A DNA stretch of 64,000 nt from an uncultured bacterium (lineage in GTDB: Bacteria; Patescibacteriota; Minisyncoccia; Phycocordibacterales; Zambryskibacteraceae): contig CAWBLF010000003.1 of assembly GCA_963789635.1 (NCBI GenBank), positions 2,372 to 66,371 of the forward strand, given 5' to 3'. This document shows positions 6,572-42,690 of this stretch, one piece after another (the stretch's first letter is position 1; each line of letters begins with the position of its first letter). The position numbers and the translations under genes were made by a program. The notes below the pieces were generated by a model that was given only the letters and a program-made list of their open reading frames with translations, was not told the origin of the DNA and searched no databases.

Positions 6572-7282
6572 ATGTTCGGAACAAGTATCTCACTCATTGC
6601 TGCGTTTGTCGCAGGTCTTGTCTCATTCCTCTCTCCTTGTGTGTTGCCTATTATTCCCGGTTTTTTGGCATATCTTGCAGGCGCCGCACCAAACGATGAA
6701 ACCAAGCGTAAAGTCATTTTTCTCAACAGCGTTTTTTTTGTTTTTGGTTTCTCTTTTGTTTTTGCCATTCTAGGTGTTCTTCTAAATACCGTACTTACTC
6801 ACGTGGCATACGACGTGCAGACATGGCTTTCGCGCATTGGCGGGCTACTCATAATTGTTTTTGGTCTTTTTCTTGTCGGGCTTATCAAGATTCCATTCCT
6901 AGAAAAGGAATACAAGTTTGGAGTTAAAAGAAAATTTTCTTCCCGTTATATAACGTCGTTTCTTTTTGGTCTAGCATTTGTGGCAGGATGGACGCCGTGT
7001 GTCGGCCCGGCCCTCGGTGTAATACTCGGAATTGCGGCTACACAACCGGGGTCAGCCTTTGTCCTTCTTCTCGTCTATGCTCTGGGGCTTGGCGTACCGT
7101 TCTTGATTGTCGGTTACTTTACCGCACAAGCCAGTCGCTTCATTGATTCACACACGAAAGCATTAAAAATTGTAAATATTGTGTTTGGTATCGTCCTTCT
7201 TGCTCTTGGAGTTTTGGTGTTTACACAAAGTTTACCGCTCATCGCTAATTTTGATTTTATAAATAATATTTTGCTTAGATAA
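6572..7282 (+). CDS. ccdA: Cytochrome c biogenesis/thiol-disulfide transporter CcdA (DsbD family)
   Basis: Polytopic membrane protein carrying the two conserved Cys motifs LSPCVLP and GWTPCVGP. Confidence 0.85.
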   Translation: MFGTSISLIAAFVAGLVSFLSPCVLPIIPGFLAYLAGAAPNDETKRKVIFLNSVFFVFGFSFVFAILGVLLNTVLTHVAYDVQTWLSRIGGLLIIVFGLFLVGLIKIPFLEKEYKFGVKRKFSSRYITSFLFGLAFVAGWTPCVGPALGVILGIAATQPGSAFVLLLVYALGLGVPFLIVGYFTAQASRFIDSHTKALKIVNIVFGIVLLALGVLVFTQSLPLIANFDFINNILLR

Positions 7283-7283
7283 C

Positions 7284-8480
7284 ATGAATACCTCTACACG
7301 CAGACTGACTCTTGCGCTCGTCGTTATCATCATTGTAAGCGCCATAATATTTCTAAGTTCTCGCCAGTCACGCATTGGCTCCGGTGGGGTAGACGCTGTC
7401 TCCGTGGTGCCAGCGCGATCAGCTACGAGCTCGACAGATGTGGCGGTTTCATCGACTACAACCACAACGACCGGTTACACGTTTCTTACTCCCGCACAAA
7501 AGGCACAACAGTTTAGCTTGGCAAAAGAGATTACCGATCCAACGGGATTTATAAATACAGGCGGAAAGCCTGTTACCATTTCAAGTTTGGTTGGCAAGAA
7601 AGTAATTCTCATAGACTTCTGGACTTACAGCTGTATCAATTGTCAGCGCACTATTCCGTATCTAAACAGCTGGTATAGCAAATATGCAAAATATGGACTT
7701 GAGATTATCGGAGTGCACAGCCCGGAGTTTGATTTTGAAAAAGATATTAACAACGTTACGAAGGCAGTGACTCGTTTCGGCATTGAGTACCCCGTCGTTC
7801 TTGACAGTAATTACGGCACATGGAAAGCGTACGACAACCAGTATTGGCCACACGAATATCTTATAGATATAGATGGCTATGTGGTCCACGACCAGATTGG
7901 GGAAGGTAATTACCAAGAAACTGAACAAGAGATTCAAAAAGCTCTTGTAGAACGTGCAGTGGTACTTGGTCTTCCTACGACAGGGATAGCACAACCTTTG
8001 ACCACAGACGTGAGCCAAACTCCAAGTGGACCGATGAGCCCAGAAACATATTTTGGTTCAGCTAGAAACGAATTTTTTGGCAATGGCATGCAGAGTCTGG
8101 CTGGTCTACAAGCCGGACTGGTGATTCCACAAACAATTAATCCGGATACGTTCTATCTTTCTGGTGATTGGAATTTCTTTGACCAGTATGCGCAAAATAA
8201 ATCGGCAAATGCACAAATAGAATATCAATACACCGCCACCAATGTATTTTTTGTTGCCGGCGCGAATACCGATACAACTGTGGAAATTCTTCGTGACGGG
8301 AAACCTCTTGGTGTCGAGAAAGGGAGCGATGTTGTGACAACCACAGACGGAAAGACAGTGGTTCACATAAAAGACAATCGGCTTTATAACATAATTCAAG
8401 ATAGCTCAACCGGAACGCATACACTACAGTTTATTATCGAAACCCCCGGACTTCAGGCCTACACTTTCACTTTTGGTTAA
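7284..8480 (+). CDS. Membrane-anchored thioredoxin-like protein (TlpA/ResA fold with DipZ-like C-terminal domain)
   Basis: N-terminal TM helix and a CxxC motif in FWTYSCINCQRT. Located immediately downstream of ccdA (stop/start 1 nt apart). Confidence 0.75.
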   Translation: MNTSTRRLTLALVVIIIVSAIIFLSSRQSRIGSGGVDAVSVVPARSATSSTDVAVSSTTTTTTGYTFLTPAQKAQQFSLAKEITDPTGFINTGGKPVTISSLVGKKVILIDFWTYSCINCQRTIPYLNSWYSKYAKYGLEIIGVHSPEFDFEKDINNVTKAVTRFGIEYPVVLDSNYGTWKAYDNQYWPHEYLIDIDGYVVHDQIGEGNYQETEQEIQKALVERAVVLGLPTTGIAQPLTTDVSQTPSGPMSPETYFGSARNEFFGNGMQSLAGLQAGLVIPQTINPDTFYLSGDWNFFDQYAQNKSANAQIEYQYTATNVFFVAGANTDTTVEILRDGKPLGVEKGSDVVTTTDGKTVVHIKDNRLYNIIQDSSTGTHTLQFIIETPGLQAYTFTFG

Positions 8481-9568
8481 AGAAATCTTCGTAACGGTAA
8501 CATTATAGTTTCACGAAATTTTTGGTGCAGAGGACGCGCTTGCCATTCGGCCAATTCAGCCCTTTTTGCATAGTCCAAATCTACATCAAAATATTTTTTG
8601 ACTTCCATAGCAAAATCTTTTTTGGTACTGACAATATTTGCCTCGTAATTATAAAAAAAACTCAAAGAATCAAGGTTGAAACTGCCCACGGTGGCCCATT
8701 CGTCATCTATGACCGCTGTTTTGGCGTGTATCATTTCGTTGGTATACAAAAATATTTTGACACCGGATGAAAGTAGTTTTTCAAAGCAAGTCCGTGAGGC
8801 CAAATCCACACTTTTGTAGTTTGATGACTCTGGAATGAGAATTTTTACTTCCACACCGCGTCTCGCCGCCAGCCTCAGGACTCGGCGCAACCTTCGGTCA
8901 GGTATGAAATATGGCGTGGTAATGCAAATATATTTTTGGGCGTTTTGAATTGCTTCTATAAAAATTCGGTACATAAAACGTTTGCGAATATAGGGAGAGT
9001 TTGTGACAAAATTGAAACCTTTTATGAATTTTCGAGTTCTATTCATTCGACGGAAGAAATTTTCAGCGCCTGCCGTCTCCCACATTTCCTCAAAGGCGAA
9101 ACGCATTTCACCGACTATCGGGCCAGTTATCTGCAAGTGGGTGTCGCGCCAAAACTGCATGTCCTTGCGAAATCCCACTCCGCCTATGAAGCCGGTGGCC
9201 CCGTCTACCACCATCAGTTTGCGGTGATCACGCAAAAACCATGAAAAGAAATTTAAAAGTCTCCACGGCTTGATGACATTAAAAAAACGGATTTCAATGC
9301 CGATATCCTTCAAGGTACTTGGCAAATTGGAGGCAAACAATCCATAACTTCCGGCCATGTCGCACAATATTCGGACGTGAATGCCTTGTTTGCGCTTGGA
9401 TATAAGCAATTCCAAGAATTCTTGACCGATTTCGTCGCGTTCCAAAATATATTGCTCCACATCTATGGAGGTTTTGGCATTCAAGCAAGCCGTTTTCATG
9501 GAGGCCCACGCCTCCTCGGTTTTCAGATAGAAATGCCAACGTGTGGGTGTGTCCATTTTTTTAACCAA
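8477..9568 (-). CDS. cls: Cardiolipin synthase / phospholipase D family protein
   Basis: Two HKD motifs: HRKLMVVDG and HAKTAVIDDEWATVGSFNLD. Confidence 0.85.
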   Translation of the reverse strand: MVKKMDTPTRWHFYLKTEEAWASMKTACLNAKTSIDVEQYILERDEIGQEFLELLISKRKQGIHVRILCDMAGSYGLFASNLPSTLKDIGIEIRFFNVIKPWRLLNFFSWFLRDHRKLMVVDGATGFIGGVGFRKDMQFWRDTHLQITGPIVGEMRFAFEEMWETAGAENFFRRMNRTRKFIKGFNFVTNSPYIRKRFMYRIFIEAIQNAQKYICITTPYFIPDRRLRRVLRLAARRGVEVKILIPESSNYKSVDLASRTCFEKLLSSGVKIFLYTNEMIHAKTAVIDDEWATVGSFNLDSLSFFYNYEANIVSTKKDFAMEVKKYFDVDLDYAKRAELAEWQARPLHQKFRETIMLPLRRFL

Positions 9569-11541: not shown

Positions 11542-11985
11542 ATGAGTCTTATCCAAAACAAAAAGGCGCATTTTAATTATGAAATTACAGAAAAGCTCGA
11601 AGCCGGTATCGAGCTTATCGGCCTTGAAGTAAAAAGCTTGAGGAAAGGGCAGGGCAACCTTGAGGGTTCGCATGTCACCATCCGAGGCAAGGAAGCGTAC
11701 CTGATAGGTATGCAAATTCCGCCATTTCAAAGCGCCAATACACCGGAAAGTTACAATCCGACTCGCAACCGCCGACTATTACTGACCAAGAAAGAGCTCA
11801 AAGAATTGGAAGGGGTGGAGCATCAAAAAGGATTGACAATCGTGCCTATTTCGGTGTATAATAAAGGTAGAAAATTGAAAGTAGAGCTCGGTATCGCCCG
11901 CGGTAAGAAAAGGTTTGATAAACGTCAGACTATAAAGAAACGCGAGACAGACCGAGAGACAAGACGCACTTTGAAATATGAATAA
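11542..11985 (+). CDS. smpB: SsrA-binding protein SmpB
   Basis: 147 aa with NKKAHFNYEI..LEAGIELIGLEVKS..., typical of SmpB. The tmRNA gene lies 390 nt downstream. Confidence 0.95.
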   Translation: MSLIQNKKAHFNYEITEKLEAGIELIGLEVKSLRKGQGNLEGSHVTIRGKEAYLIGMQIPPFQSANTPESYNPTRNRRLLLTKKELKELEGVEHQKGLTIVPISVYNKGRKLKVELGIARGKKRFDKRQTIKKRETDRETRRTLKYE

Positions 11986-12371: not shown

Positions 12372-12772
12372 GGGAGTGATCGGCCTAGACAGTAGGATTC
12401 ATTTGGAATATGCAGGAGAGAGCTGTGGTGACTCTAAAATCCGCCACAAAGACTAACTGCAAACAGCACAGTCGCACGAGCAAACGTTTCTCCATATTTT
12501 GGAGCTAACGATTTTGCTTTCGCTTACGCTTCGGCCTAAACGACGTCAACTCTTACAAAGTCTGTAAGCAAGATGTTGGTGGAATAATGACGGACTCTAG
12601 AACACAACCGCTTCGGTGTGTTCTGAACTGTAGAAGCTCGGCATAATGAGGTTTTGTTTACTTCCTACTCATTACGCTCAAATCTGTCTTCGACAGGTGA
12701 AATAAACTAACTCTTGTAGAAATATTTCAAATACCTTATTGCACCGCGGTTCGATTCCGCGCACTTCCACCA
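12372..12772 (+). ncRNA. ssrA: tmRNA (ssrA), one-piece form
   Basis: The 5' GGGAGUG pairs perfectly with the 3' CACUUCC, including G3:U70. T-arm is CGCGG-UUCGAUU-CCGCG, followed by ACCA. A candidate tag ORF starts at GCA 12459 and ends ...FAYASA with TAA at 12537-12539. Adjacent to smpB. Confidence 0.8.
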
Positions 12773-16114: not shown

Positions 16115-16277
16115 AATGTTCTATAATATTACTAATAAATAATTGCCTGCTTCTATTGTATCAAAAAATAAACGTATTGTGGCAGTTCTCCACAGGTAAA
16201 ATCATTTGCTTGTCGATAGGTATAAATTAGCTCTAAAAAGGGCTATTATGCTATAGTTTTAGGGGTTTCCTCACATT

Positions 16278-16526
16278 CCGCCCTTAGCTCAGTTGGTTAG
16301 AGCACAGAGCTTATAATTACTAGCGAGAGGAGAAATTGTAAGCTATGCTTACATATTTCAACCGAGCGACGTAATTATATGAAAGTGTTTTTGGTGCGAG
16401 TATAGCTCAGTTGGTAGAGCGCCGAGCTTATACCTCGGTGGTCCTAGGTTCGAATCCTAGTACTCGCACCAAAAACGTTTCCATATACCTCTGCGGTCCT
16501 TGGTTCGAATCCAAGAGGGCGGACCA
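16278..16526 (+). tRNA. tRNA-Ile(UAU) gene split after position 37 by a 172-nt insert (16316-16487)
   Basis: The 5' half CCGCCCT-TA-GCTC..GAGC-A-CAGAG-CTTATA and the 3' half C-CTCTG-CGGTC-CTTGG-TTCGAAT-CCAAG-AGGGCGG-A-CCA form a perfect cloverleaf only when joined. Confidence 0.55.
16396..16471 (+). tRNA. tRNA-Ile(UAU), complete with encoded CCA, nested inside the split tRNA
   Basis: GCGAGTA/TACTCGC acceptor, canonical D and T arms, anticodon loop CTTATAC. Flanks gtttttggt/accaaaaac extend the acceptor helix to 16 bp. Confidence 0.8.
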
Positions 16527-16548
16527 ATATATTCTGACGAAGGTCTTC

Positions 16549-16570
16549 TGACGGACATCCGACGCCGTCA
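16549..16570. repeat. Degenerate copy of the GGACRTCGGAYGTCC palindrome family
   Basis: tgacggacatccgacgccgtca differs at three positions from the perfect palindrome tgacggacgtcggacgtccgtca at 20759-20781. Confidence 0.4.
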
Positions 16571-16580
16571 TAAGATTAAG

Positions 16581-19187
16581 TTATTCAAAATGGATTTTGT
16601 TTTCGGTTTTTCTTAGGTGATCTGTGAGGAGAGGGAAGTTTGAGAGAGACGGGTTTTCGGCAATAATTCTTGTCGCTTCTGTCCGTGCCGCTTCCACCAT
16701 CTTAATGTTGCGTATGGCTTCCATTGCCAAATCCGAGATACCCCATTGTTTGCCACCGTACAATTCGCCGGCGCCACGTTGTTGCAAGTCAAACTCGGCC
16801 AGTTCAAAACCATTGGCGGCTTTTTTCAGCGCGTTTAGCCGTTCCGAGGTTTTTTCATTCGAAGATTCTGTGAACACAAAACAATACGGTTGGTATGTGC
16901 TTCTTTGGACACGCCCGCGCAGTTGGTGAAGTTGGGCTAGACCGAACCTTTCGCCTCCTTCAATGATTATGACGGTGGCGTTTGGCACATTGACTCCCAC
17001 TTCAACCACCGATGTTGCTACCAGAATATCAATCTTATGGGTATTGAAATCGTTCATCACTTTTTCTTTTTCTGCCGGAGTCATTTTTCCGTGAAGAATG
17101 GCAATTTCAAATTCCGGAAAAACTTCTTTTTTGAGCCGTTTGGTCTCCTCCGTCACAGACTTGGCAAGGATAGAATTTTCTTTTGTTGGATCCGGCTCAT
17201 TGATGCGCGGGCAAATGACATATGCTTGACGGCCAGATTGTATTTCGTGTCGCACTTTTTCGTAGATATCTTTTCTTTGTTTTGGCAGGACAATTTCTGT
17301 AATGATTTTCTTTCTTCCCGGTGGCATTTCATCGAGCAAGCTTAGATCCAGATCACCATAAAGTGTCAAAGCGAGAGTCCTCGGTATTGGCGTGGCGGTC
17401 ATAGACAATAGATGCGGAACGGACGCGGAACTATGCTGAACATACGCGGAACCACGTGCTTTATCGTAGATAATCCTTTGAATAGTAAGTTCTGACGGGC
17501 CGAAATTTGCTAGTAGTGCTAGACGATAATCTGAACCTTTTAAATAATTCCAAAGCTGCTTTTTTTCCGTAGTTCCAACAAAAGAAAGTGCTTTCAGTTC
17601 AACAATTATTTTTTCATCAATTACAAAATCTGGAATATATACACCAACTTTCTTTTTGTTATAAAAAATTGGAATTTGTTTCTCGCGATTATATGAAATA
17701 TTTCGTTTTGTAAATTCCTCCGCTAGTGCTTTTTGGTAGACAACTTCCTTATGACCAGAACCGAGTTGTTTTTTTACTTCAAATATTGCTTGTCTAACCA
17801 TATACGATAAATCTTTGTACAAAAGTTCTGGACTGGTTTTTTCTTCTGCGACGTTCGGCGTTTGTTCCGCGCTAGTTCCGCGAGCCAGCGCCGCGCGCTG
17901 GCTTACTCCAAATCGGTGTTGTTCATCAATAATGACATAGGCCAGATGTTTGAACTTTACAGATTTTTGGATAAGGGTATGCGTTCCGATAAGAATGGGT
18001 ATCTCTCCACTGGCTACCCATTTGAGAAGCTGGGCGCGTGAAATAGTAGTGTAGCCGTTCGGATTTACTTTTGATGGAAATTTTTTACAACCACTACCCG
18101 TGATTAGACCTATAGAGATTCCCGTTCCCACAAAGAATTTTATAAACGATTCAAAATGTTGTTGGGCTAATATTTCCGTAGGCACCATATAGGCGGTCTG
18201 AAGATTGCCAAAGTCTTGACCATTTGGCCGTGTGGTGGTAACCACAAATGTGCTTGTGGCGGCTACCGCTGTCTTGCCACTTCCCACATCACCTTCGAGC
18301 AAACGGGACATCGGGTGACCTTTTTTGAAATCATAAAGAACGTGTTCAAGAGTTTTTTCTTGAGCTTTTGTGAGAGGAAATGGCAATCGATTGACAAAGT
18401 CTGACAACGTACTTTGATTTGGTTCGATAATAAACCCCTTTTCGTGTTGCCAACGAGCACGGTTTTGTTGTTTTTCCAGTTGAATAAAAAATATTTCCTC
18501 AAATGCAAACCTTTTTCTAGCCGAAAGCGCGTCGTCGGTCTTGTGCGGTGTGTGAATCCAGATGAGTGAAGTTTTTAGATTGGGAAGCTTGTAGGTTTTT
18601 AGAATATTTTCCGGTATTGGGTCATTGATGGTGTCCAATAGACCAGATAAGAAAATTCTTTGTACGGTGTGATACATCCAGTTGGAAGTGATGCCACGAC
18701 TCTCCGGGTAAACAGGATAAAGCGTGTGGTCAGGTACCCCCTCATTCCAAAGTGAATCACCAACTGCCAGTGGAATCTTGGTGACGGTTTCTATTTTTGG
18801 GTTACTCATATAAAGCTCTCCTTTTCTTTCACTTACTTTGCCTTCGGCCCGTACGAGCGAGCCCTCTCCAATCATTTTTGCCAAGTAGGCCTGATGAAAC
18901 CAAATAATTTTCATCCTACCTGTTTCGTCTTCAATCACCCCTTCAGCCATTGGGATTTTTTTGCGAAAAGCCTTGCTGGTTTTGAGTCCGGAAATTTTGC
19001 CAAAGATCACAGCACTACTTCCTTTTGACAATGAACCGATATTCATTTTTGATGCCGTGTCGCCGTATCGGATGGGGAAGTGATAGAGCATATCCGCCAC
19101 GGTTTCAATATGTAAGTTTTTTAGAGCTTTGGCTTGAGCTGGCAAAACTCTAGTTACATCAGAAATTTTTGTTTCAAGATTTATCAT
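16581..19187 (-). CDS. recG: ATP-dependent DNA helicase RecG with an in-frame ~142-aa insertion
   Basis: GDVGSGKT, DEQHRFGV, SMTATPIPRT and QLHQLRGRVQR motifs with an N-terminal wedge/OB region. At 868 aa it is longer than typical because of the insert between motifs II and III. Confidence 0.9.
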   Translation of the reverse strand: MINLETKISDVTRVLPAQAKALKNLHIETVADMLYHFPIRYGDTASKMNIGSLSKGSSAVIFGKISGLKTSKAFRKKIPMAEGVIEDETGRMKIIWFHQAYLAKMIGEGSLVRAEGKVSERKGELYMSNPKIETVTKIPLAVGDSLWNEGVPDHTLYPVYPESRGITSNWMYHTVQRIFLSGLLDTINDPIPENILKTYKLPNLKTSLIWIHTPHKTDDALSARKRFAFEEIFFIQLEKQQNRARWQHEKGFIIEPNQSTLSDFVNRLPFPLTKAQEKTLEHVLYDFKKGHPMSRLLEGDVGSGKTAVAATSTFVVTTTRPNGQDFGNLQTAYMVPTEILAQQHFESFIKFFVGTGISIGLITGSGCKKFPSKVNPNGYTTISRAQLLKWVASGEIPILIGTHTLIQKSVKFKHLAYVIIDEQHRFGVSQRAALARGTSAEQTPNVAEEKTSPELLYKDLSYMVRQAIFEVKKQLGSGHKEVVYQKALAEEFTKRNISYNREKQIPIFYNKKKVGVYIPDFVIDEKIIVELKALSFVGTTEKKQLWNYLKGSDYRLALLANFGPSELTIQRIIYDKARGSAYVQHSSASVPHLLSMTATPIPRTLALTLYGDLDLSLLDEMPPGRKKIITEIVLPKQRKDIYEKVRHEIQSGRQAYVICPRINEPDPTKENSILAKSVTEETKRLKKEVFPEFEIAILHGKMTPAEKEKVMNDFNTHKIDILVATSVVEVGVNVPNATVIIIEGGERFGLAQLHQLRGRVQRSTYQPYCFVFTESSNEKTSERLNALKKAANGFELAEFDLQQRGAGELYGGKQWGISDLAMEAIRNIKMVEAARTEATRIIAENPSLSNFPLLTDHLRKTENKIHFE
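17451..17876 (-). other. GxxExxY / PD-(D/E)xK-like (PDDEXK_3-type) module inserted in-frame in recG (residues ~438-579)
   Basis: LGSGHKEVVYQKAL (GxxExxY-like), DFVIDEKIIVELK (D..E.K) and QLWNYLKGSDYRLALLANFG. Bounded by inverted repeats cgcggaac (17424, 17445) and gttccgcg (17864, 17875). Confidence 0.7.
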
Positions 19188-19195
19188 TCATTTAC

Positions 19196-19287
19196 TGGCG
19201 GAGACGGACGGATTCGAACCGTCGAGGGGTTTTAAAGCCCCTGCCTCTTTAGCAAAGAGGTACGTTAGACCACTCTGACACGTCTCC
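19196..19287 (-). tRNA. tRNA-Ser(GCU), type II, CCA encoded
   Basis: The reverse complement reads GGAGACG..., anticodon loop TTGCTAA, long variable arm GCAGGGGCTTTAAAACCCCTCG, T-arm GACGG-TTCGAAT-CCGTC, G73, CCA. Confidence 0.9.
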
Positions 19288-19531: not shown

Positions 19532-19618
19532 GGAGGGTTGGGTGAGTGGTTTAAACCAACAGTTTACTAAACTGTCGTCCTTTAATTGGGACCGTGAGTT
19601 CGAATCTCACACCCTCCG
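19532..19618 (+). tRNA. Type II tRNA with Ser-like identity elements, anticodon reading ACU
   Basis: GGAGGGT/ACCCTCC acceptor, G73, long variable arm, T-arm GTGAG-TTCGAAT-CTCAC. The anticodon stem ACAGT/ACTGT encloses the loop TTACTAA. Confidence 0.7.
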
Positions 19619-19706
19619 CAATTACCAAACACCTCAACAAAAGTTGAGGTGTTTGGTAATTTATGAGGGGGCTCGGTAAATTAAAATAGGATGTTAGAAT
19701 ACAAAG

Positions 19707-35629: not shown

Positions 35630-38307
<2,678 letters not shown>

Positions 38308-40889: not shown

Positions 40890-40983
40890 GGTTGCCGTCT
40901 ACGTACCTGATCATAATGAAGTGTAGTATATATAGCGGGTTGCCGTACGTACCTGATCATAATGAAGTGTAGTATATATAGCG
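40890..40983 (+). repeat. Tandem duplication (48 + 46 nt) abutting and overlapping the 5' end of the tRNA-like gene
   Basis: ggttgccgt(ct)acgtacctgatcataatgaagtgtagtatatatagcg occurs twice. Each unit junction recreates agcgggttg, the first 9 nt of the tRNA at 40980. Confidence 0.8.
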
Positions 40984-41050
40984 GGTTGGAGGAGTAGTAC
41001 CTCGACAGGCTCATAACCTGTAGGCATCAGTGCAATTCTGATACCCGCAA
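40980..41050 (+). tRNA. tRNA(CAU) with initiator-like marks but non-canonical D and T loops
   Basis: Acceptor AGCGGGT/ACCCGCA with an A1:A72 mismatch. D stem GAGG/CCTC (A11:T24). Anticodon arm ACAGG-CTCATAA-CCTGT. T arm ATCAG-TGCAATT-CTGAT lacks TTC, and the D loop AGTAGTA lacks GG. Confidence 0.45.
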
Positions 41051-41116
41051 CAAGCACTCGTGGGTGACAGACACGAAACGAAAAATATCTAGTCACCCAT
41101 GGGATGTGAGACAATT

Positions 41117-41293
41117 GTCGAGGTAGCTGTTTTGGTAGTTAAACTGTAACGTTTTGTTTTTGTAAGTTTTCGTATGTCGAGGTAGCTGTTTTGGTAGTTA
41201 AACTGTAACGTTTTGTTTTCGTTAGTTTTCGTATGTCGAGGTAGCTGTTTTGGTAGTTAAACTGTAACGTTTTGTTTTCGTAAGTTTTCGTAT
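41117..41293 (+). repeat. 3 x 59-nt tandem repeat immediately upstream of tRNA-Met, each unit starting with the tRNA 5' end
   Basis: Units at 41117-41175, 41176-41234 and 41235-41293 differ by 2-3 substitutions. Each begins gtcgaggtagct (the first 12 nt of the tRNA) and retains ggtag at the D-loop position. Confidence 0.9.
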
Positions 41294-41366
41294 GTCGAGG
41301 TAGCTCAGTCGGTAGAGCACAGCACTCATAAAGCTGCGGTCGTGAGTTCGATTCTCACCCTCGACA
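41294..41366 (+). tRNA. tRNA-Met(CAU), elongator-type (or Ile2 if lysidinylated)
   Basis: GTCGAGG/CCTCGAC acceptor, GCTC-AGTCGGTA-GAGC D arm, anticodon loop CTCATAA, T-arm GTGAG-TTCGATT-CTCAC, A73. No CCA encoded. Confidence 0.85.
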
Positions 41367-41536
41367 CAATATTAAAAAACTTAATCATTAAATTTTTTAA
41401 TATTGTGACGAGCAAAGAAGCGTAAGCTTCTGTGGGAGAATCGAAAGCCGGAGCATATCGCCTTGGCGATGCGAGGCGGGGTCGCGACCGAGCACAGCAG
41501 TGCGAGAGTTGTGACCGATTCTCACCCTCGACACCA
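41367..41536 (+). repeat. tRNA-end-associated element, copy B (after tRNA-Met)
   Basis: 17-nt direct repeat gattctcaccctcgaca at 41350-41366 and 41517-41533, with the second copy followed by cca. 13-bp hairpin 41367-41379/41393-41405. Inverted T-loop copy at 41436-41445. Core at 41446-41489. Confidence 0.55.
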
Positions 41537-41555
41537 GAATTAAAAATTCGAAATT

Positions 41556-41629
41556 GCGGTCGTAGCTCAACTGGTTAGAGCACTCGCCTGTCACGCGAGA
41601 GGTTGCCGGTTCAAGTCCGGTCGGCCGCG
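41556..41629 (+). tRNA. tRNA-Asp(GUC)
   Basis: GCGGTCG/CGGCCGC acceptor, anticodon loop CTGTCAC, T-arm GCCGG-TTCAAGT-CCGGT, G73. Confidence 0.9.
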
Positions 41630-41809
41630 CAAAAGAAAAGGTCACAGAAGTGGCTTTTTCTGCGGGTGCCGGACTTGAACCGGGGAAGGGGGTCGGGGAA
41701 AAGGGACTTTCCCCGTGGAGGAAAACAGCGAAGCGTTAGAAACCGCGGGTTTCTAAAACGCAGTCCTGAGTTTACGATGGCGAGTAGTGAAATTCCGGTC
41801 GGCCGCGCA
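41630..41809 (+). repeat. tRNA-end-associated element, copy C (after tRNA-Asp)
   Basis: 16-nt direct repeat tccggtcggccgcgca at 41616-41631 and 41794-41809. Perfect inverted T-arm copy ccggacttgaaccgg at 41669-41683. GGGGGTCGGGGAAAA core-like motif at 41688-41702. Confidence 0.45.
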
Positions 41810-41828
41810 ATATCCGGAATTATAAAAT

Positions 41829-41855
41829 AAAGACCGCTCCTCTGGGCGGTCTTTA
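41829..41855 (-). terminator. Intrinsic terminator of the minus-strand ORF 41884-42333
   Basis: agaccgc-tcctctgg-gcggtct, with a T-run on the minus strand (reverse complement ...gcggtctttatttta). Confidence 0.6.
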
Positions 41856-41883
41856 GGGGTAGTTTTGGTCGTACACATCACTT

Positions 41884-42333
41884 TCAAACTCCTGATTGCT
41901 TTAGACCCTCCTCAACCAAGACGTTGAGGAACGAACGGAGTTTTCTGATTCCTGGCAATTTGCCGCCGACCACGGTCTGACCAGCTCGCAGTTCCTTGAG
42001 CTTTGAAATCAGTTTAAGATTTCTTTCTGCCCAATGCTTCACTTGAGCTGTGTTCAGTGGCACTTTGCGGTTTTTGTTCAGCAAATTTGTGGCAACAGAG
42101 AGGGCGGATTTACCGGTCATTTCGGCCATCAAAGAATTTCTTTCTTGATGCTCATTAGCCGCAACTTCTTCAAGTATCATATTGAAGAAAAGTTCAATGT
42201 CGCAAAGTGCATCCTGGTTTGTAGTCACCAGTGGTTTGCCGAGACCCAATACGAGTAATTCCTCAGATACTGATGTTGCCGCCGTTATCCAATGCGGGGT
42301 GTATTGTCGCCCCAAAGGGACAGTGTGTGACAT
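41884..42333 (-). CDS. Hypothetical protein inside the tRNA island
   Basis: 149-aa ORF with its own terminator. No motif recognised. Confidence 0.45.
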   Translation of the reverse strand: MSHTVPLGRQYTPHWITAATSVSEELLVLGLGKPLVTTNQDALCDIELFFNMILEEVAANEHQERNSLMAEMTGKSALSVATNLLNKNRKVPLNTAQVKHWAERNLKLISKLKELRAGQTVVGGKLPGIRKLRSFLNVLVEEGLKQSGV

Positions 42334-42462
42334 ATTCTTCTCCTTCGGTCGCTAAGTGTGTACGAGGTTCTTGGCTTATCCTATACACCTCGGTTTACCA
42401 AGTCAATTTTGCAAAATAGGCTGAAATTATATAGGATAAACGGATATTCTTTTAGATTTTAA

Positions 42463-42535
42463 GCCGTTGTAGCTCAGTTGGTAGAGCACGTCATTGGTAA
42501 TGACGAGGTCAACAGTTCAATCCTGGTCAACGGCT
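42463..42535 (+). tRNA. tRNA-Thr(GGU)
   Basis: GCCGTTG/CAACGGC acceptor, anticodon loop TTGGTAA, T-loop TTCAATC. Confidence 0.85.
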
Positions 42536-42556
42536 CAAGTGTTGATATAGGCGCAC

Positions 42557-42629
42557 GCCACCTTAGCTCAGTTGGTAGAGCACCACTTTCGTAAAGTGGG
42601 GGTCCCCGGTCCGATTCCGGGAGGTGGCT
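42557..42629 (+). tRNA. tRNA-Thr(CGU)
   Basis: GCCACCT/AGGTGGC acceptor, anticodon loop TTCGTAA. The T-arm CCCGG-TCCGATT-CCGGG has C at position 55. Confidence 0.8.
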
Positions 42630-42690
42630 CACTGGCTTAAGTGAAAAAATATAGCAAGCGAAAACGCCGGGATGTTCTCCGGCGTTCGGG

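Follow-up and report, generated by a model that had tools for sequence, protein, structure and literature searches.

A second complete tRNA-Ile(UAU) and a conserved hairpin between TATA tetranucleotides inside a split tRNA-Ile(UAU) gene of Paceibacteria: a putative protein-less mobile element

Described systems that interrupt or replace tRNA genes

PATEs (IS200/IS605 type) and REP/REPIN repeats, which are moved by HUH Y1 transposases, are small and protein-less and lack classical terminal inverted repeats. In IS608, cleavage occurs 10–20 nt away from the feet of the hairpins, at sites recognized through non-canonical pairing. We know of no PATE or REPIN with a tRNA gene. The protein-spliced tRNA introns of archaea and eukaryotes usually lie at 37/38 and form a BHB, in which two 3-nt bulges bear the splice sites with a 4-bp helix between them; some archaeal introns host other RNAs. 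Group I introns are marked by a P3–P9 core, by a U.G wobble pair where P1 contains the 5' splice site, and by a final G (omega-G).

Group I introns have been described in the anticodon loops of bacterial tRNAs, Patescibacteria included (Nakagawa et al. 2026, PMC13011429). [quoted passage not shown] SegB is described as a free-standing homing endonuclease of the T4 tRNA cluster (PMC2330249).

Layout of the nested tRNA-Ile(UAU) locus

The analyzed window was the whole 64-kb stretch of DNA, about a quarter of a 269-kb genome contig. Related loci are cited by number (L004 and so on). The nested locus consisted of the following features:

16247..16257, + strand: promoter-like extended -10 TATGCTATAGT; the outer tRNA begins about 20 nt downstream (read from sequence)
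16278..16315, + strand: 5' half of the outer (resident) tRNA-Ile(UAU), positions 1–37, ending CTTATA (ARAGORN on joined halves; homology)
16312..16315, + strand: TATA-1, the target in the anticodon loop (U34–A37), supplying the 4 outermost bp of the basal helix of X
16316..16375, + strand: hairpin 1 (X), reading ATTAC / TAGCGAGAGG / variable apical hairpin / CCGAGCGAC / GTAAT
16376..16379, + strand: TATA-2, between hairpins 1 and 2, invariant in 8/8 X copies and able to pair with TATA-1 or TATA-3
16380..16395, + strand: leader TGAAAGTGTTTTTGGT, the 5' strand of hairpin 2, which pairs with 16469–16483 and stacks on the acceptor stem
16396..16471, + strand: inner tRNA-Ile(UAU) with encoded CCA (ARAGORN; Rfam tRNA, 77 bits)
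16472..16483, + strand: trailer AAAACGTTTCCA, the 3' strand of hairpin 2, with the element terminus ...CA (sequence, pairing)
16484..16487, + strand: TATA-3, directly before the 3' outer half
16488..16526, + strand: 3' half of the outer (resident) tRNA-Ile(UAU), positions 38–76 including CCA (ARAGORN on joined halves; homology)

When the two outer halves were joined, they formed a 77-nt cloverleaf with an encoded CCA, which ARAGORN called as tRNA-Ile(UAU). The joined tRNA matched the tRNA-Ile(UAU) genes of the related Paceibacteria (Patescibacteria) L004 and L013, which are uninterrupted, at 73 of 74 positions (98.6%), and it adjoined RecG and DUF378, which is the ancestral, syntenic position; the halves are therefore not a chance resemblance. 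The proposal of the initial annotation that they belong to one genuine gene was thus confirmed, and all of its statements on the sequence itself held. No damaging substitution was found in the outer halves, and their sequence would fit either a recent insertion or continued function. ARAGORN in intron mode (0–400 nt) did not report the outer gene, which had to be joined in silico; default tRNA finders reported the inner gene alone.

Because TATA is repeated at both junctions (16312–16315 and 16484–16487), the insertion could not be placed at 37/38, where it had initially been put; the registers from 33/34 to 37/38 all gave the identical joined product. An Ile tRNA with the anticodon UAU had been regarded as uncommon in bacteria. 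It was not unusual in this lineage, being found by ARAGORN in 57 of 80 related loci.

The extended -10 was absent from the consensus-scan list. The block GGCTATTATGCTATAGTTTTAGG of the promoter-like region was kept in L113, the closest relative found (RecG 80% identical), and the uninterrupted tRNA-Ile genes of L004, L013, L015, and L023 were preceded by TGCTATAGT-like boxes. Judged by its sequence, the predicted promoter probably drives the whole nested transcript.

The second tRNA reported inside the insert was complete and is presumed to be the functional gene. It shared only 78% identity with the outer tRNA and was closer to the tRNA-Ile of L073 and L075 (90.5%, the nearest found), which indicates that it is foreign to its own locus. 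The extension of its acceptor helix (gtttttggt/accaaaaac) proved real and, together with TATATG/CATATA, gave a stem of about 26 bp. Leader and trailer also paired in L015, L117, and L082, where their sequences were different, and hairpin 2 (leader and trailer stacked on the acceptor stem, with TATATG/CATATA as bounds) was present in 4/4 X-bearing tRNA-Ile lineages. Hairpin 2 was the extended acceptor stem of the inner tRNA in the tRNA copies and an 8–10-nt tail elsewhere; the counterpart of AAAACGTTTCCA in the intergenic X copies was the short tail TGGTAATCCA or TAGTAAAC.

The X module and nested loci in relatives

X made up the first 57–60 nt, approximately, of the 172-nt insert and folded as a rod (z = -5.3). 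Across five copies, 95.7% of cells were paired and 8 of 14 pairs showed compensatory changes; the observed pairing score was reached by 0 of 500 shuffles, and slid registers were likewise far off. The pairing of tataattac with gtaattata across the 5' junction, noted initially, was present and formed the basal helix of a hairpin that other genomes have also kept. The internal loops were conserved in all copies, and the conserved loop sequences of the two arms were unlike each other (TAGNGAG vs GARCGAC). Plain terminal inverted repeats were ruled out for X, because the arm loops differ and the terminal 5 nt vary between copies and covary instead of being conserved. No Rfam family matched X on either strand, known small ribozymes included. 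On the X-sense strand, G.U pairs outnumbered A.C pairs 3 to 1.

The grammar of the element was TATA-hairpin1-TATA-hairpin2-TATA, and its form at the tRNA site was CT-TATA-[X-TATA-TG..tRNA..CA]-TATA-CC. The empty tRNA site of relatives read CT-TATA-CC. TATA-3 is either a second copy of the target (target-site duplication) or the right-end tetranucleotide of the element.

Covariance-model searches of 935 kb of related DNA from 85 sources gave nine matches; the L116 and L117 loci share one copy, which left eight distinct copies, of which three lay outside tRNA-Ile loci. In the 64-kb window, a covariance-model search run without filters gave no copy beyond the known one (total 1), and X was rare in a metagenome scan (3 matches). 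With eight distinct copies in about 0.9 Mb from 85 sources, X is low-copy, which counts against a mobile element. The three intergenic copies, found by covariance model and flanked by TATA, were:

L055, 4192-4256: intergenic X
L041, 4592-4656: intergenic X
L074, 3572-3636: intergenic X

The L041 copy appeared as a clean 73-nt presence/absence difference (one extra TATA counted in) from the orthologous empty sites in L062 and L074. The empty site read ...TATAT-TATA-GCATA..., and the occupied site in L041 read ...TATAT-TATA-[X-TATA-TAGTAAAC]-TATA-GCATA.... The empty site of L062 had a single TATA; L041 had one on both sides of the block and one between hairpin and tail. These intergenic sites, one of them with orthologous empty sites, argue that X is inserted DNA. 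In L082, a second X lay inverted at the 3' junction, and each copy was 3' of CTTATA on its own strand; targeting by X therefore does not depend on how the tRNA is oriented, which would not be expected of an intron. The L041 copy resembled a MITE in being small, non-coding, and variable in presence, with an apparent target-site duplication, and the window insert likewise contained no ORF; conserved terminal inverted repeats and many copies per genome were not found (eight copies in 935 kb, one in the window).

X differed at 4 of 66 positions between L015 and L083, and the neighboring spacers were far more divergent (counted by eye); X may for this reason serve the cell and not be selfish DNA only. 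A purely cellular role for X in cis, as an RNA or DNA element that acts on the gene downstream (for example as a regulatory, processing, or leader hairpin), with selection rather than mobility preserving the nesting, is highly improbable. Such a role would agree with X being better kept than both the adjoining spacers and the outer half, with the conserved internal-loop sequences, and with X closely preceding the start of a gene in the tRNA loci and L041. It does not agree with the inconstant orientation of X to its neighbors (one L082 copy is inverted, and the L055 copy is antisense between two genes that, by eye, look like a histidine-kinase/response-regulator pair), with its absence from orthologous sites, or with the single copy in 64 kb.

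Nested or broken tRNA-Ile(UAU) loci were found in at least eight further lineages. X was intact in four tRNA-Ile lineages (the window, L015, L083/L117, and L082), each with a complete inner tRNA, and no X-only interruption of tRNA-Ile was among the loci found. The joined outer halves gave no tRNA in L113 or L072, and in L015 and L117 they gave one only after an additional D-loop hairpin was removed as well. The outer halves were often decayed in relatives, and the inner tRNA types varied among loci. In L072 and L113, the inner tRNA lay within X, not 3' of it, so the history of the nested loci would include further rearrangements. A gene of the 2H / 2'-5' RNA ligase family was located close to RecG in L116 and L117.

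The recurrence of the architecture also bears on whether two tRNA-Ile alleles of different community members were stitched together during assembly, which we regard as extremely unlikely. An independent Logan assembly of run ERR12035936 matched both flanks with 100% identity, up to 16308 and from 16495; its contigs ended there, inside both outer halves, and did not span the insert. These breaks would be compatible with an artefact and point to tRNA k-mers shared between organisms in the sample. However, a 5' half, X, a tRNA, a short tail, and a 3' half followed one another in this order in four more assemblies made independently from other samples and lineages (L015, L082, L083/L116/L117, and L113/L114/L115), L113 (JGI) and L114 (ENA) agreed exactly over the region, and a chimera would not make X or the TATA grammar.

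Alternative readings and the proposed insertion

The interruption had been compared with a tRNA intron. The split gene and the inserted tRNA were borne out, but an intron in the RNA sense was unsupported, as no group I core and no BHB were found and X also occurs between genes. The insert, judged initially to be too small for a group I intron, was also wrongly shaped for one. A cmscan of 16150-16650 on both strands (E<=10) gave no match to Intron_gpI; the matches over the inner tRNA were tRNA, Plastid-ycf2, SpF41, MIR7807, and mascRNA, and the one other match was a weak snoRNA hit to the outer 5' half in antisense. A separate Rfam scan of the window at gathering thresholds returned tRNAs and tmRNA only. 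The 3' end of the insert was A or U in 5/5 junction registers (...CCATATA) and never G, and exon U34–A37 formed Watson-Crick pairs with UAUA throughout, with no U.G at the 5' junction. A group I intron was ruled out on these grounds (no Rfam match at E<=10, no omega-G, no U.G pair). The locus shares with group I tRNA introns the interruption of an anticodon loop, the phylum, and a helix between the 5' exon end and the insert; unlike them, it has no P3–P9 core, the non-tRNA part of the insert is 96 nt only, and X is also found outside tRNA genes.

A BHB was drawn by hand in registers 37/38 and 36/37 and sought in predicted folds. No examined register had two 3-nt bulges flanking a 4-bp helix, and a BHB intron was ruled out; the junctions lay within or at the end of continuous helices, either the X basal helix or the TATATG/CATATA stem. 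As in archaeal and eukaryal tRNA introns, the site is compatible with 37/38 and the insert contains another stable RNA gene. Unlike in those introns, no BHB could be drawn, the site can be shifted over 4 nt, the host is bacterial (it has tmRNA and SmpB), and no splicing endonuclease was among the window ORFs.

A true tRNA intron, in which the 172 nt would be excised and the outer halves ligated so that one transcript yields two tRNA-Ile(UAU), is considered very unlikely. X would then be the recognition module, its internal UAUA pairing with the 5' exon end and afterwards with the 3' end of the intron. The flawless outer halves, the covarying basal helix that bridges the 5' junction, the one internal TATA able to pair with either junction, the 3-to-1 excess of G.U over A.C pairs, the RNA ligase family gene of L116 and L117, and the abundance of tRNA introns in Patescibacteria (PMC13011429) are all in keeping with splicing. 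The missing ribozyme match, 3' G, U.G pair, and BHB are set against these points. In addition, an intergenic X has no exons to join, and one such site has an empty orthologue; the antisense X at the L082 3' junction would sequester X(+) in a long duplex; a spare tRNA always accompanies X, which a spliced intron would not need; the outer genes of relatives decay though X stays conserved; and RtcB and EndA were not among the ORFs of the window, about a quarter of the genome contig. Removal at the RNA level, with X holding the UAUA of the 5' exon and then the 3' UAUA of the intron on one internal guide and with excision by a nuclease/ligase pair or by X itself, has a very slim chance of being correct. 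The junction sequence expected if the outer halves were spliced is CAGAGCUUAUACCUCUGCGG.

Pfam analysis of the roughly 55 ORFs of the 64-kb window detected no integrase, transposase, HUH protein, homing endonuclease, RtcB, EndA, or TilS; the initial annotation had suggested a search for tilS, a splicing endonuclease, and RtcB, and none was present in this quarter of the contig. Around other copies, a protein screen that took in the L082 ORF list, the called genes of L113-L120, and four ORFs of L014 and L074, and excluded the flanks of L015, L041, and L055, gave no transposase, recombinase, or nuclease. No Y1 HUH transposase (TnpA) was found in the window, the annotated L113-L120 flanks, or the L082 ORF list. 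In viral contigs, the Ile-context X pattern had 0 matches; the context-free core pattern had 27, of which 15 were one conserved phage sequence and none had the X architecture; and the tail 18-mer had 36, nearly all in a few conserved phage families and none preceded by an X hairpin. As no mobilizing enzyme was found in the regions screened, mobility rests on one empty/occupied comparison and on the distribution of X.

Several related loci showed other routes of change. In L074, the inner tRNA came with an 82-aa GIY-YIG ORF (Pfam 6.6e-15; weak PHROG 'homing endonuclease' match), and the insertion was in the D-loop region with a direct repeat of about 45 nt on its flanks. Small stand-alone GIY-YIG proteins are common and have no established role. 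In L014, a 231-aa HTH ORF lay directly 5' of a third-type tRNA that overwrote an earlier nested copy; it had a LAGLIDADG-like motif, seen by eye only, and a homing endonuclease was unsupported by Pfam, PDB sequences, and PHROGs. L077 carried a 3'-end duplication of the att-site type. Among close relatives, the orientation of the tRNA-Ile gene flipped and its acceptor-stem types varied widely.

All these loci are consistent with a reading in which X is not the driver: tRNA-Ile(UAU) would be repeatedly overwritten by incoming alleles, either by gene conversion at breaks made by homing endonucleases or by integration through an integrase and later deletion, leaving half-genes and X as an incidental hairpin repeat in the tract. 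Precedents are tRNA-dependent lysogeny (PMC10865867) and T4 SegB, through which a tRNA gene region is preferentially inherited or replaced (PMC2330249). Loci of the L074 and L014 types, in which the tRNA and a nuclease-like ORF would travel together, may have arisen by a SegB-like process. As the explanation of the window locus, however, overwriting is unlikely. Unlike in the SegB case, the window insert encodes no endonuclease and contains no ORF at all, the 64 kb yielded neither a nuclease nor an integrase, and the insert junctions conform exactly to the TATA grammar seen where X is intergenic. The 82-aa GIY-YIG ORF, moreover, stands alone without a DNA-binding domain (Pfam scan), and the L014 ORF lacks nuclease support.

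The preferred reading, to which we assign a probability of about 0.6, is that a TATA-targeting, protein-less hairpin element split the resident gene and supplies the replacement tRNA, as a DNA insertion and not a spliced intron. The insert would be a member of a small, low-copy Paceibacteria family of protein-less hairpin elements with the target tetranucleotide TATA. To our knowledge, from inspection of standard loop sequences, UAU followed by A37 (CT-TATA-CC) gives the sole tRNA anticodon loop containing TATA, and this TATA would be the chosen target. The window copy would be special in that a complete foreign tRNA-Ile(UAU) contributes its acceptor stem to hairpin 2, alongside the leader and trailer. 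After the split, transcription from the resident promoter would run from the 5' half through X, the leader, the inner tRNA, and the trailer into the 3' half; the inner tRNA would be freed by RNase P and 3' processing and would take over AUA decoding, and the outer halves would be relics, by chance still intact in this genome. We infer that the outer gene is inactive and that the nested locus is transcribed and processed by this route. By analogy with IS200/IS605-type elements, mobility would proceed via folded single-stranded DNA, with the mobilizing enzyme presumably acting in trans.

Two other modes of insertion were rejected. Single-crossover integration of a tRNA-bearing circle predicts two chimeric tRNAs, not a complete tRNA between halves. 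Retro-insertion of a mature tRNA does not fit the inner copies of L015 and L083, which lack CCA, or the inner tRNA of the window, which is unlike the outer one.

Insertion together with a spare tRNA is probably best viewed as a miniature analogue of phage tRNA-dependent lysogeny. In both, a mobile element would sit in an essential host tRNA gene that is not rebuilt (PMC10865867), and a complete tRNA of the same isotype accompanies the split gene. In lysogeny, a whole prophage is integrated by a tyrosine integrase at an attP/attB core of about 10 bp, whereas here 172 nt without an ORF were found, and no integrase for an attP x attB reaction in 64 kb. The spare tRNA, moreover, lies between the target halves, and the junctions are TATA beside structured hairpins.

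As in PATEs and REPINs, there is a hairpin near each end, structure is conserved over sequence, and the orientation of X in L082 is tied to the strand, which would fit strand-specific elements. A fixed tetranucleotide, the putative target, has a similar one at the other end, which may equally be a 4-bp target duplication, and an internal sequence can pair with both. Unlike in IS608, TATA abuts the hairpins and pairs canonically. The very low copy number and the lack of a Y1 transposase in the screened regions also differ from PATEs and REPINs.

If the preferred reading is true, this would be, as far as is known, the smallest described mobile element that destroys an essential tRNA gene and repays it with its own copy. 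The whole unit would be about 170 nt without a protein, the tRNA acceptor stem doubling as a terminal hairpin. It would account for the variable acceptor stems and orientation of tRNA-Ile(UAU) and for the leftover half-genes among close Paceibacteria. X would be a new structured hairpin family of about 60 nt, absent from Rfam. TATA-hairpin-TATA-hairpin-TATA inside CT-TATA-CC would be a pattern for annotating such loci, of which default tRNA finders report the inner gene only. Should the outer tRNA be spliced instead, the locus would represent a new system of RNA splicing in bacteria, one whose intron encloses a tRNA. The nested locus would offer a clean test of whether nested tRNA precursors can be processed in bacteria at all.

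The tRNA-Ile(UAU) locus and its resident gene

The nested locus consists of the two halves of an outer tRNA-Ile(UAU) separated by 172 nt, in which a hairpin module (X, hairpin 1) is followed by a second hairpin bearing a complete inner tRNA-Ile(UAU); its simplest account is an insertion of DNA.

Layout of the nested locus
16247–16257, +: promoter-like box, conserved and common to L113 (from the closest relative found) and others
16278–16315, +: 5' half of outer tRNA-Ile(UAU), ending CTTATA
16316–16375, +: X module, ATTAC-TAGCGAGAGG-apical hairpin-CCGAGCGAC-GTAAT
16376–16379, +: internal TATA between X and leader
16380–16395, +: leader of inner tRNA, TGAAAGTGTTTTTGGT
16396–16471, +: inner tRNA-Ile(UAU), ARAGORN and Rfam, 77 bits
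16472–16483, +: trailer, AAAACGTTTCCA
16484–16487, +: TATA at the 3' junction
16488–16526, +: 3' half of outer tRNA-Ile(UAU)

ARAGORN and Rfam searches of the locus returned the inner tRNA-Ile(UAU) only (77 bits), and ARAGORN called a perfect 77-nt tRNA-Ile(UAU) with encoded CCA when the outer pieces were joined in silico, confirming both tRNAs recognized in the initial annotation. Insertion at position 37/38, as proposed there, is compatible with the sequence but is not fixed, since TATA at both junctions allows any point from 33/34 to 37/38. The fold of the full 249 nt far exceeded those of shuffled sequences (z = −7.3). An independent Logan assembly broke at shared tRNA k-mers, and the insert itself was not spanned.

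A UAU-anticodon tRNA-Ile had been considered uncommon; in this lineage it is a normal tRNA, as ARAGORN placed one nearby in 57 of the 80 related loci fetched through RecG. Its usual neighbours are RecG and a DUF378 gene, and the window is no exception. An uninterrupted outer gene, which had been suggested as a check, was present in two relatives (L004 and L013), 73/74 identical to the joined outer tRNA. Identity between inner and outer tRNA was only 78%, and the closest matches of the inner one were the genes of L073 and L075 (90.5%). These identities make the outer halves the resident gene and the inner tRNA a foreign one at this locus. In close relatives, the tRNA-Ile(UAU) gene and its promoter had opposite orientations with respect to RecG/DUF378 (L001 vs L002; window and L113 vs L116/L117), and this small locus appears to be repeatedly inverted or re-inserted.

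The DNA of the window is unremarkable chromosomal sequence from a Paceibacteria (Patescibacteria/CPR) bacterium and encodes IF3, SmpB and tmRNA, FtsH, RecG, a type IV pilus operon, LigA, GatCA, FtsZ/FtsA, HisRS and GyrA; the nearest RecG relatives were Parcubacteria, Zambryskibacteria and Nomurabacteria MAGs. RecG (16581–19187, −) contained a PD-(D/E)XK 'GxxExxY' domain (PF13366, 5.7e-31) at about 17475–17813, between the helicase lobes. Many Paceibacteria RecG homologues carry this domain and P0002 (718 aa), from the closest relative found, lacks it, so the inserted, nuclease-like domain is polymorphic by gain or loss. The ligA gene (36228–38307, +) was split over two frames at about 37500–37520: the part with the adenylation and OB domains ends at 37520, and the zinc finger (CPECN...YCENPRCPA) and HhH/BRCT continue in the +1 frame. 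The frameshift lies near GAAGAAGATG and has three candidate causes: sequencing error, pseudogene formation or programming. The tmRNA (12372–12772, +), with SmpB just upstream (11542–11985), had an unusually long tag peptide, ANSTVARANVSPYFGANDFAFAYASA. The tRNA genes were located at 16278–16526, 19196–19287 and 40980–42630; a 3' CCA was encoded only by the two tRNA-Ile copies and tRNA-Ser(GCU) and was absent from the other six. A tRNA-Ser(ACU) (19532–19619, +) adjoins tRNA-Ser(GCU) and is kept in many relatives (L003, L011, L016, L027, L028, L032, L113 and others); an unmodified A34 is unusual in bacteria.

Nested and broken loci in relatives

A locus fetched as a RecG neighbour (L015) contained a 5' half, a 66-nt module, a complete tRNA-Ile(UAU), an 18-nt tail and a 3' half. 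The blocks in common (CTTATA-N-TAGNGAGAGG-N-CGARCGAC) were sought in a metagenome scan, which gave three more loci, of which L081 and L083 were the same sequence, recovered in full as L116/L117, and L082 was a separate lineage. The inner and outer halves of L082 were identical, and a second, inverted X copy abutted its 3' half; as the loop TTATAA is a palindrome, both X copies have CTTATA on their 5' side, each read on its own strand. A 2H phosphoesterase/2'-5' RNA ligase family gene (PF13563) lay two genes upstream of RecG (L116 3679–4221, L117 813–1355), in a genome with the L083-type nested tRNA.

Broken or nested loci from self-BLAST of tRNA-Ile against all loci
L072: inner tRNA inside a degenerate X module
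L047: locus cut off at the contig end
L014: third-type tRNA behind a 231-aa ORF; earlier nested copy overwritten
L074: 82-aa GIY-YIG ORF and tRNA in the D-loop region, flanked by ~45-nt direct repeats
L077: tRNA 3' end duplicated

The ORFs of L074 (7367–7615, −) and L014 (5495–6190, −; HTH, LAGLLLYWGEG motif) lay directly upstream of the inner tRNA-Ile and may encode nucleases of the homing type that move together with tRNA alleles. In L077, an 18–20-nt copy of the tRNA-Ile 3' end (GAATCCTAGCACGCGCAC, 7178–7197) lay downstream of the intact gene, 160 nt away, and looks like the scar of another kind of integration, one that targets the T-loop. The closest relative found (L113, L114, L115; RecG 80% identical) was nested at the same locus, with the promoter block conserved, the 5' half decayed, the module reduced to a remnant and an inner tRNA of yet another type.

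The first five X copies all folded into one rod (z −3.5 to −5.3). Its 9-bp basal helix is made of TATA and five variable nucleotides per side; above it follow a UA//GAC loop, two pairs (G-C, N-G), a purine-rich GAGA//GA loop and a variable apical hairpin. The pairing noticed earlier across the 5' junction is part of this basal helix, which was kept in all five copies. In the alignment, 95.7% of cells were paired and 8 of 14 pairs had compensatory changes, a covariation matched by none of 500 shuffles; slid registers all collapsed (26–54% paired). The excess of G.U over A.C pairs (3 vs 1, a small number) suggests that the X-sense strand is the folding strand.

Leader and trailer pair with each other in the four tRNA-bearing lineages alike, closed by TATATG/CATATA, and stack on the acceptor stem, so that the inner tRNA stands at the tip of hairpin 2, the sequence of which differed among the four. 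No comparable leader/trailer pairing was found on other tRNAs in the window.

X copies outside tRNA-Ile and empty sites

A covariance model from the five X copies, searched on 935 kb of related DNA, gave two more copies (L055 and L041).

Intergenic X copies and sites
X in L055, 4192–4256: antisense to flanking genes, 45.8 bits, E = 3e-7
X in L041, 4592–4656: between two divergent gene starts, 29.3 bits
X in L074, 3572–3636: adjoins tRNA-Ser, found by BLAST with the L041 region
Empty site, L062: CATGAGTATAT-TATA-GCATAAT-ATGG
Empty site, L074: CATGAGTATAT-CATA-ACATGAT-ATGG
Occupied site, L041: CATGGGTATAT-TATA-[ACAAT..X..ATTTT-TATA-TAGTAAAC]-TATA-GCATAT-ATGG

The L055 copy occupies the spacer between a histidine kinase gene and a response regulator gene, both recognized by eye. 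BLAST showed that the L041 insertion was absent from the orthologous intergenic regions of L062 and L074, and from this comparison the full element can be read as TATA, X, TATA, short tail and TATA. Two tails occurred, TGGTAATCCA (L055, L074) and TAGTAAAC (L041), and hairpin 2 in the intergenic copies was a mini-hairpin, TGG-TAAT-CCA, only. The layout amounts to a 4-bp duplication, or to a TATA target and a TATA right end. The tRNA site had the same grammar: empty CT-TATA-CC, occupied CT-TATA-[X-TATA-TG..tRNA..CA]-TATA-CC. With a rebuilt model, no more X copies came up in the related DNA, and a filter-free search found a single X in the window; the family is low-copy, and the eight copies known are a small sample. 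The alignments indicate that X is inserted DNA and not tRNA-specific, its mobility being read from one empty/occupied comparison.

Three readings: splicing, allele replacement and insertion of a hairpin element

Patescibacteria tRNA genes often hold group I introns (PMC13011429); nothing like the nested insert is described in that paper. No known intron kind was found: at E<=10, Rfam gave nothing outside the inner tRNA, bar one weak snoRNA match on the opposite strand over the outer 5' half. A terminal G of the insert was absent in every junction register and the exon end pairs with the insert through Watson-Crick pairs only; therefore, group I hallmarks are absent. To the initial annotation the insert had looked too small for a group I intron. 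No bulge-helix-bulge intron can be drawn, because the junctions sit in continuous helices. The 64-kb window encoded neither EndA nor RtcB, the splicing proteins for which a genome search had been proposed, and likewise lacked genes for an integrase, a transposase or a homing endonuclease.

Restoration of the outer tRNA by RNA splicing is a minority reading, favoured by the still perfect outer halves in the window. Joined halves also gave a tRNA in L082; those of L015 and L117 did so only after removal of an extra 37–49-nt D-loop hairpin, and those of L113 and L072 gave none. Conservation of X does not track outer-tRNA integrity, because L015 and L083 differed at 4/66 positions in X and 3/75 in the inner tRNA, and several-fold more in the outer 5' half, tail and spacers (own count). 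A full inner tRNA was present in every tRNA-Ile lineage with intact X, and neither the metagenome scan nor the loci without an ARAGORN tRNA-Ile yielded an interruption by X alone. The D-loop hairpins of outer 5' halves (L015 ~9172–9220; L117 ~8030–8070; L113, (rc) upstream of 7375; L072; L074) had similar bases (…CCGTA..TACGGG…CAGTTG) and different interiors, and may be a second hairpin-insertion family in the disabled gene.

The main rival, nuclease-linked or recombinational replacement of the tRNA-Ile allele, is probably a second process also acting on this gene in the clade; the L074- and L014-type loci are cases, and T4 SegB is a precedent. Hairpin insertion leaves unaccounted for the entry of tRNA-Ile into hairpin 2 and, in two loci (L072, L113), the location of the tRNA within X.

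Under the insertion account, a protein-less two-hairpin element targeting TATA would have entered the anticodon loop. To our knowledge, from inspection of standard loops, that of tRNA-Ile(UAU) is the only tRNA anticodon loop with TATA. The element resembles IS200/IS605-type single-strand transposition in its asymmetric hairpin ends, structure conserved over sequence, fixed tetranucleotide at the left flank and right end, strand-tied orientation, and internal TATA able to pair with the left-flank or right-end tetranucleotide, whereas its geometry differs from that of IS608. No Y1 transposase was found in the 64-kb window. The element would work like the IS200/IS605 type, of which it is at most a candidate member.

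Transcription from the promoter-like box at 16247–16257 would pass through the 5' half and X, and RNase P and 3' processing would free the inner tRNA. The insertion would be tolerable because the element copy carries a working tRNA-Ile(UAU). In phage tRNA-dependent lysogeny, demonstrated experimentally, the host tRNA gene is destroyed and a same-isotype tRNA of the element is required (PMC10865867); the principle would be the same here, shrunk to 172 nt.
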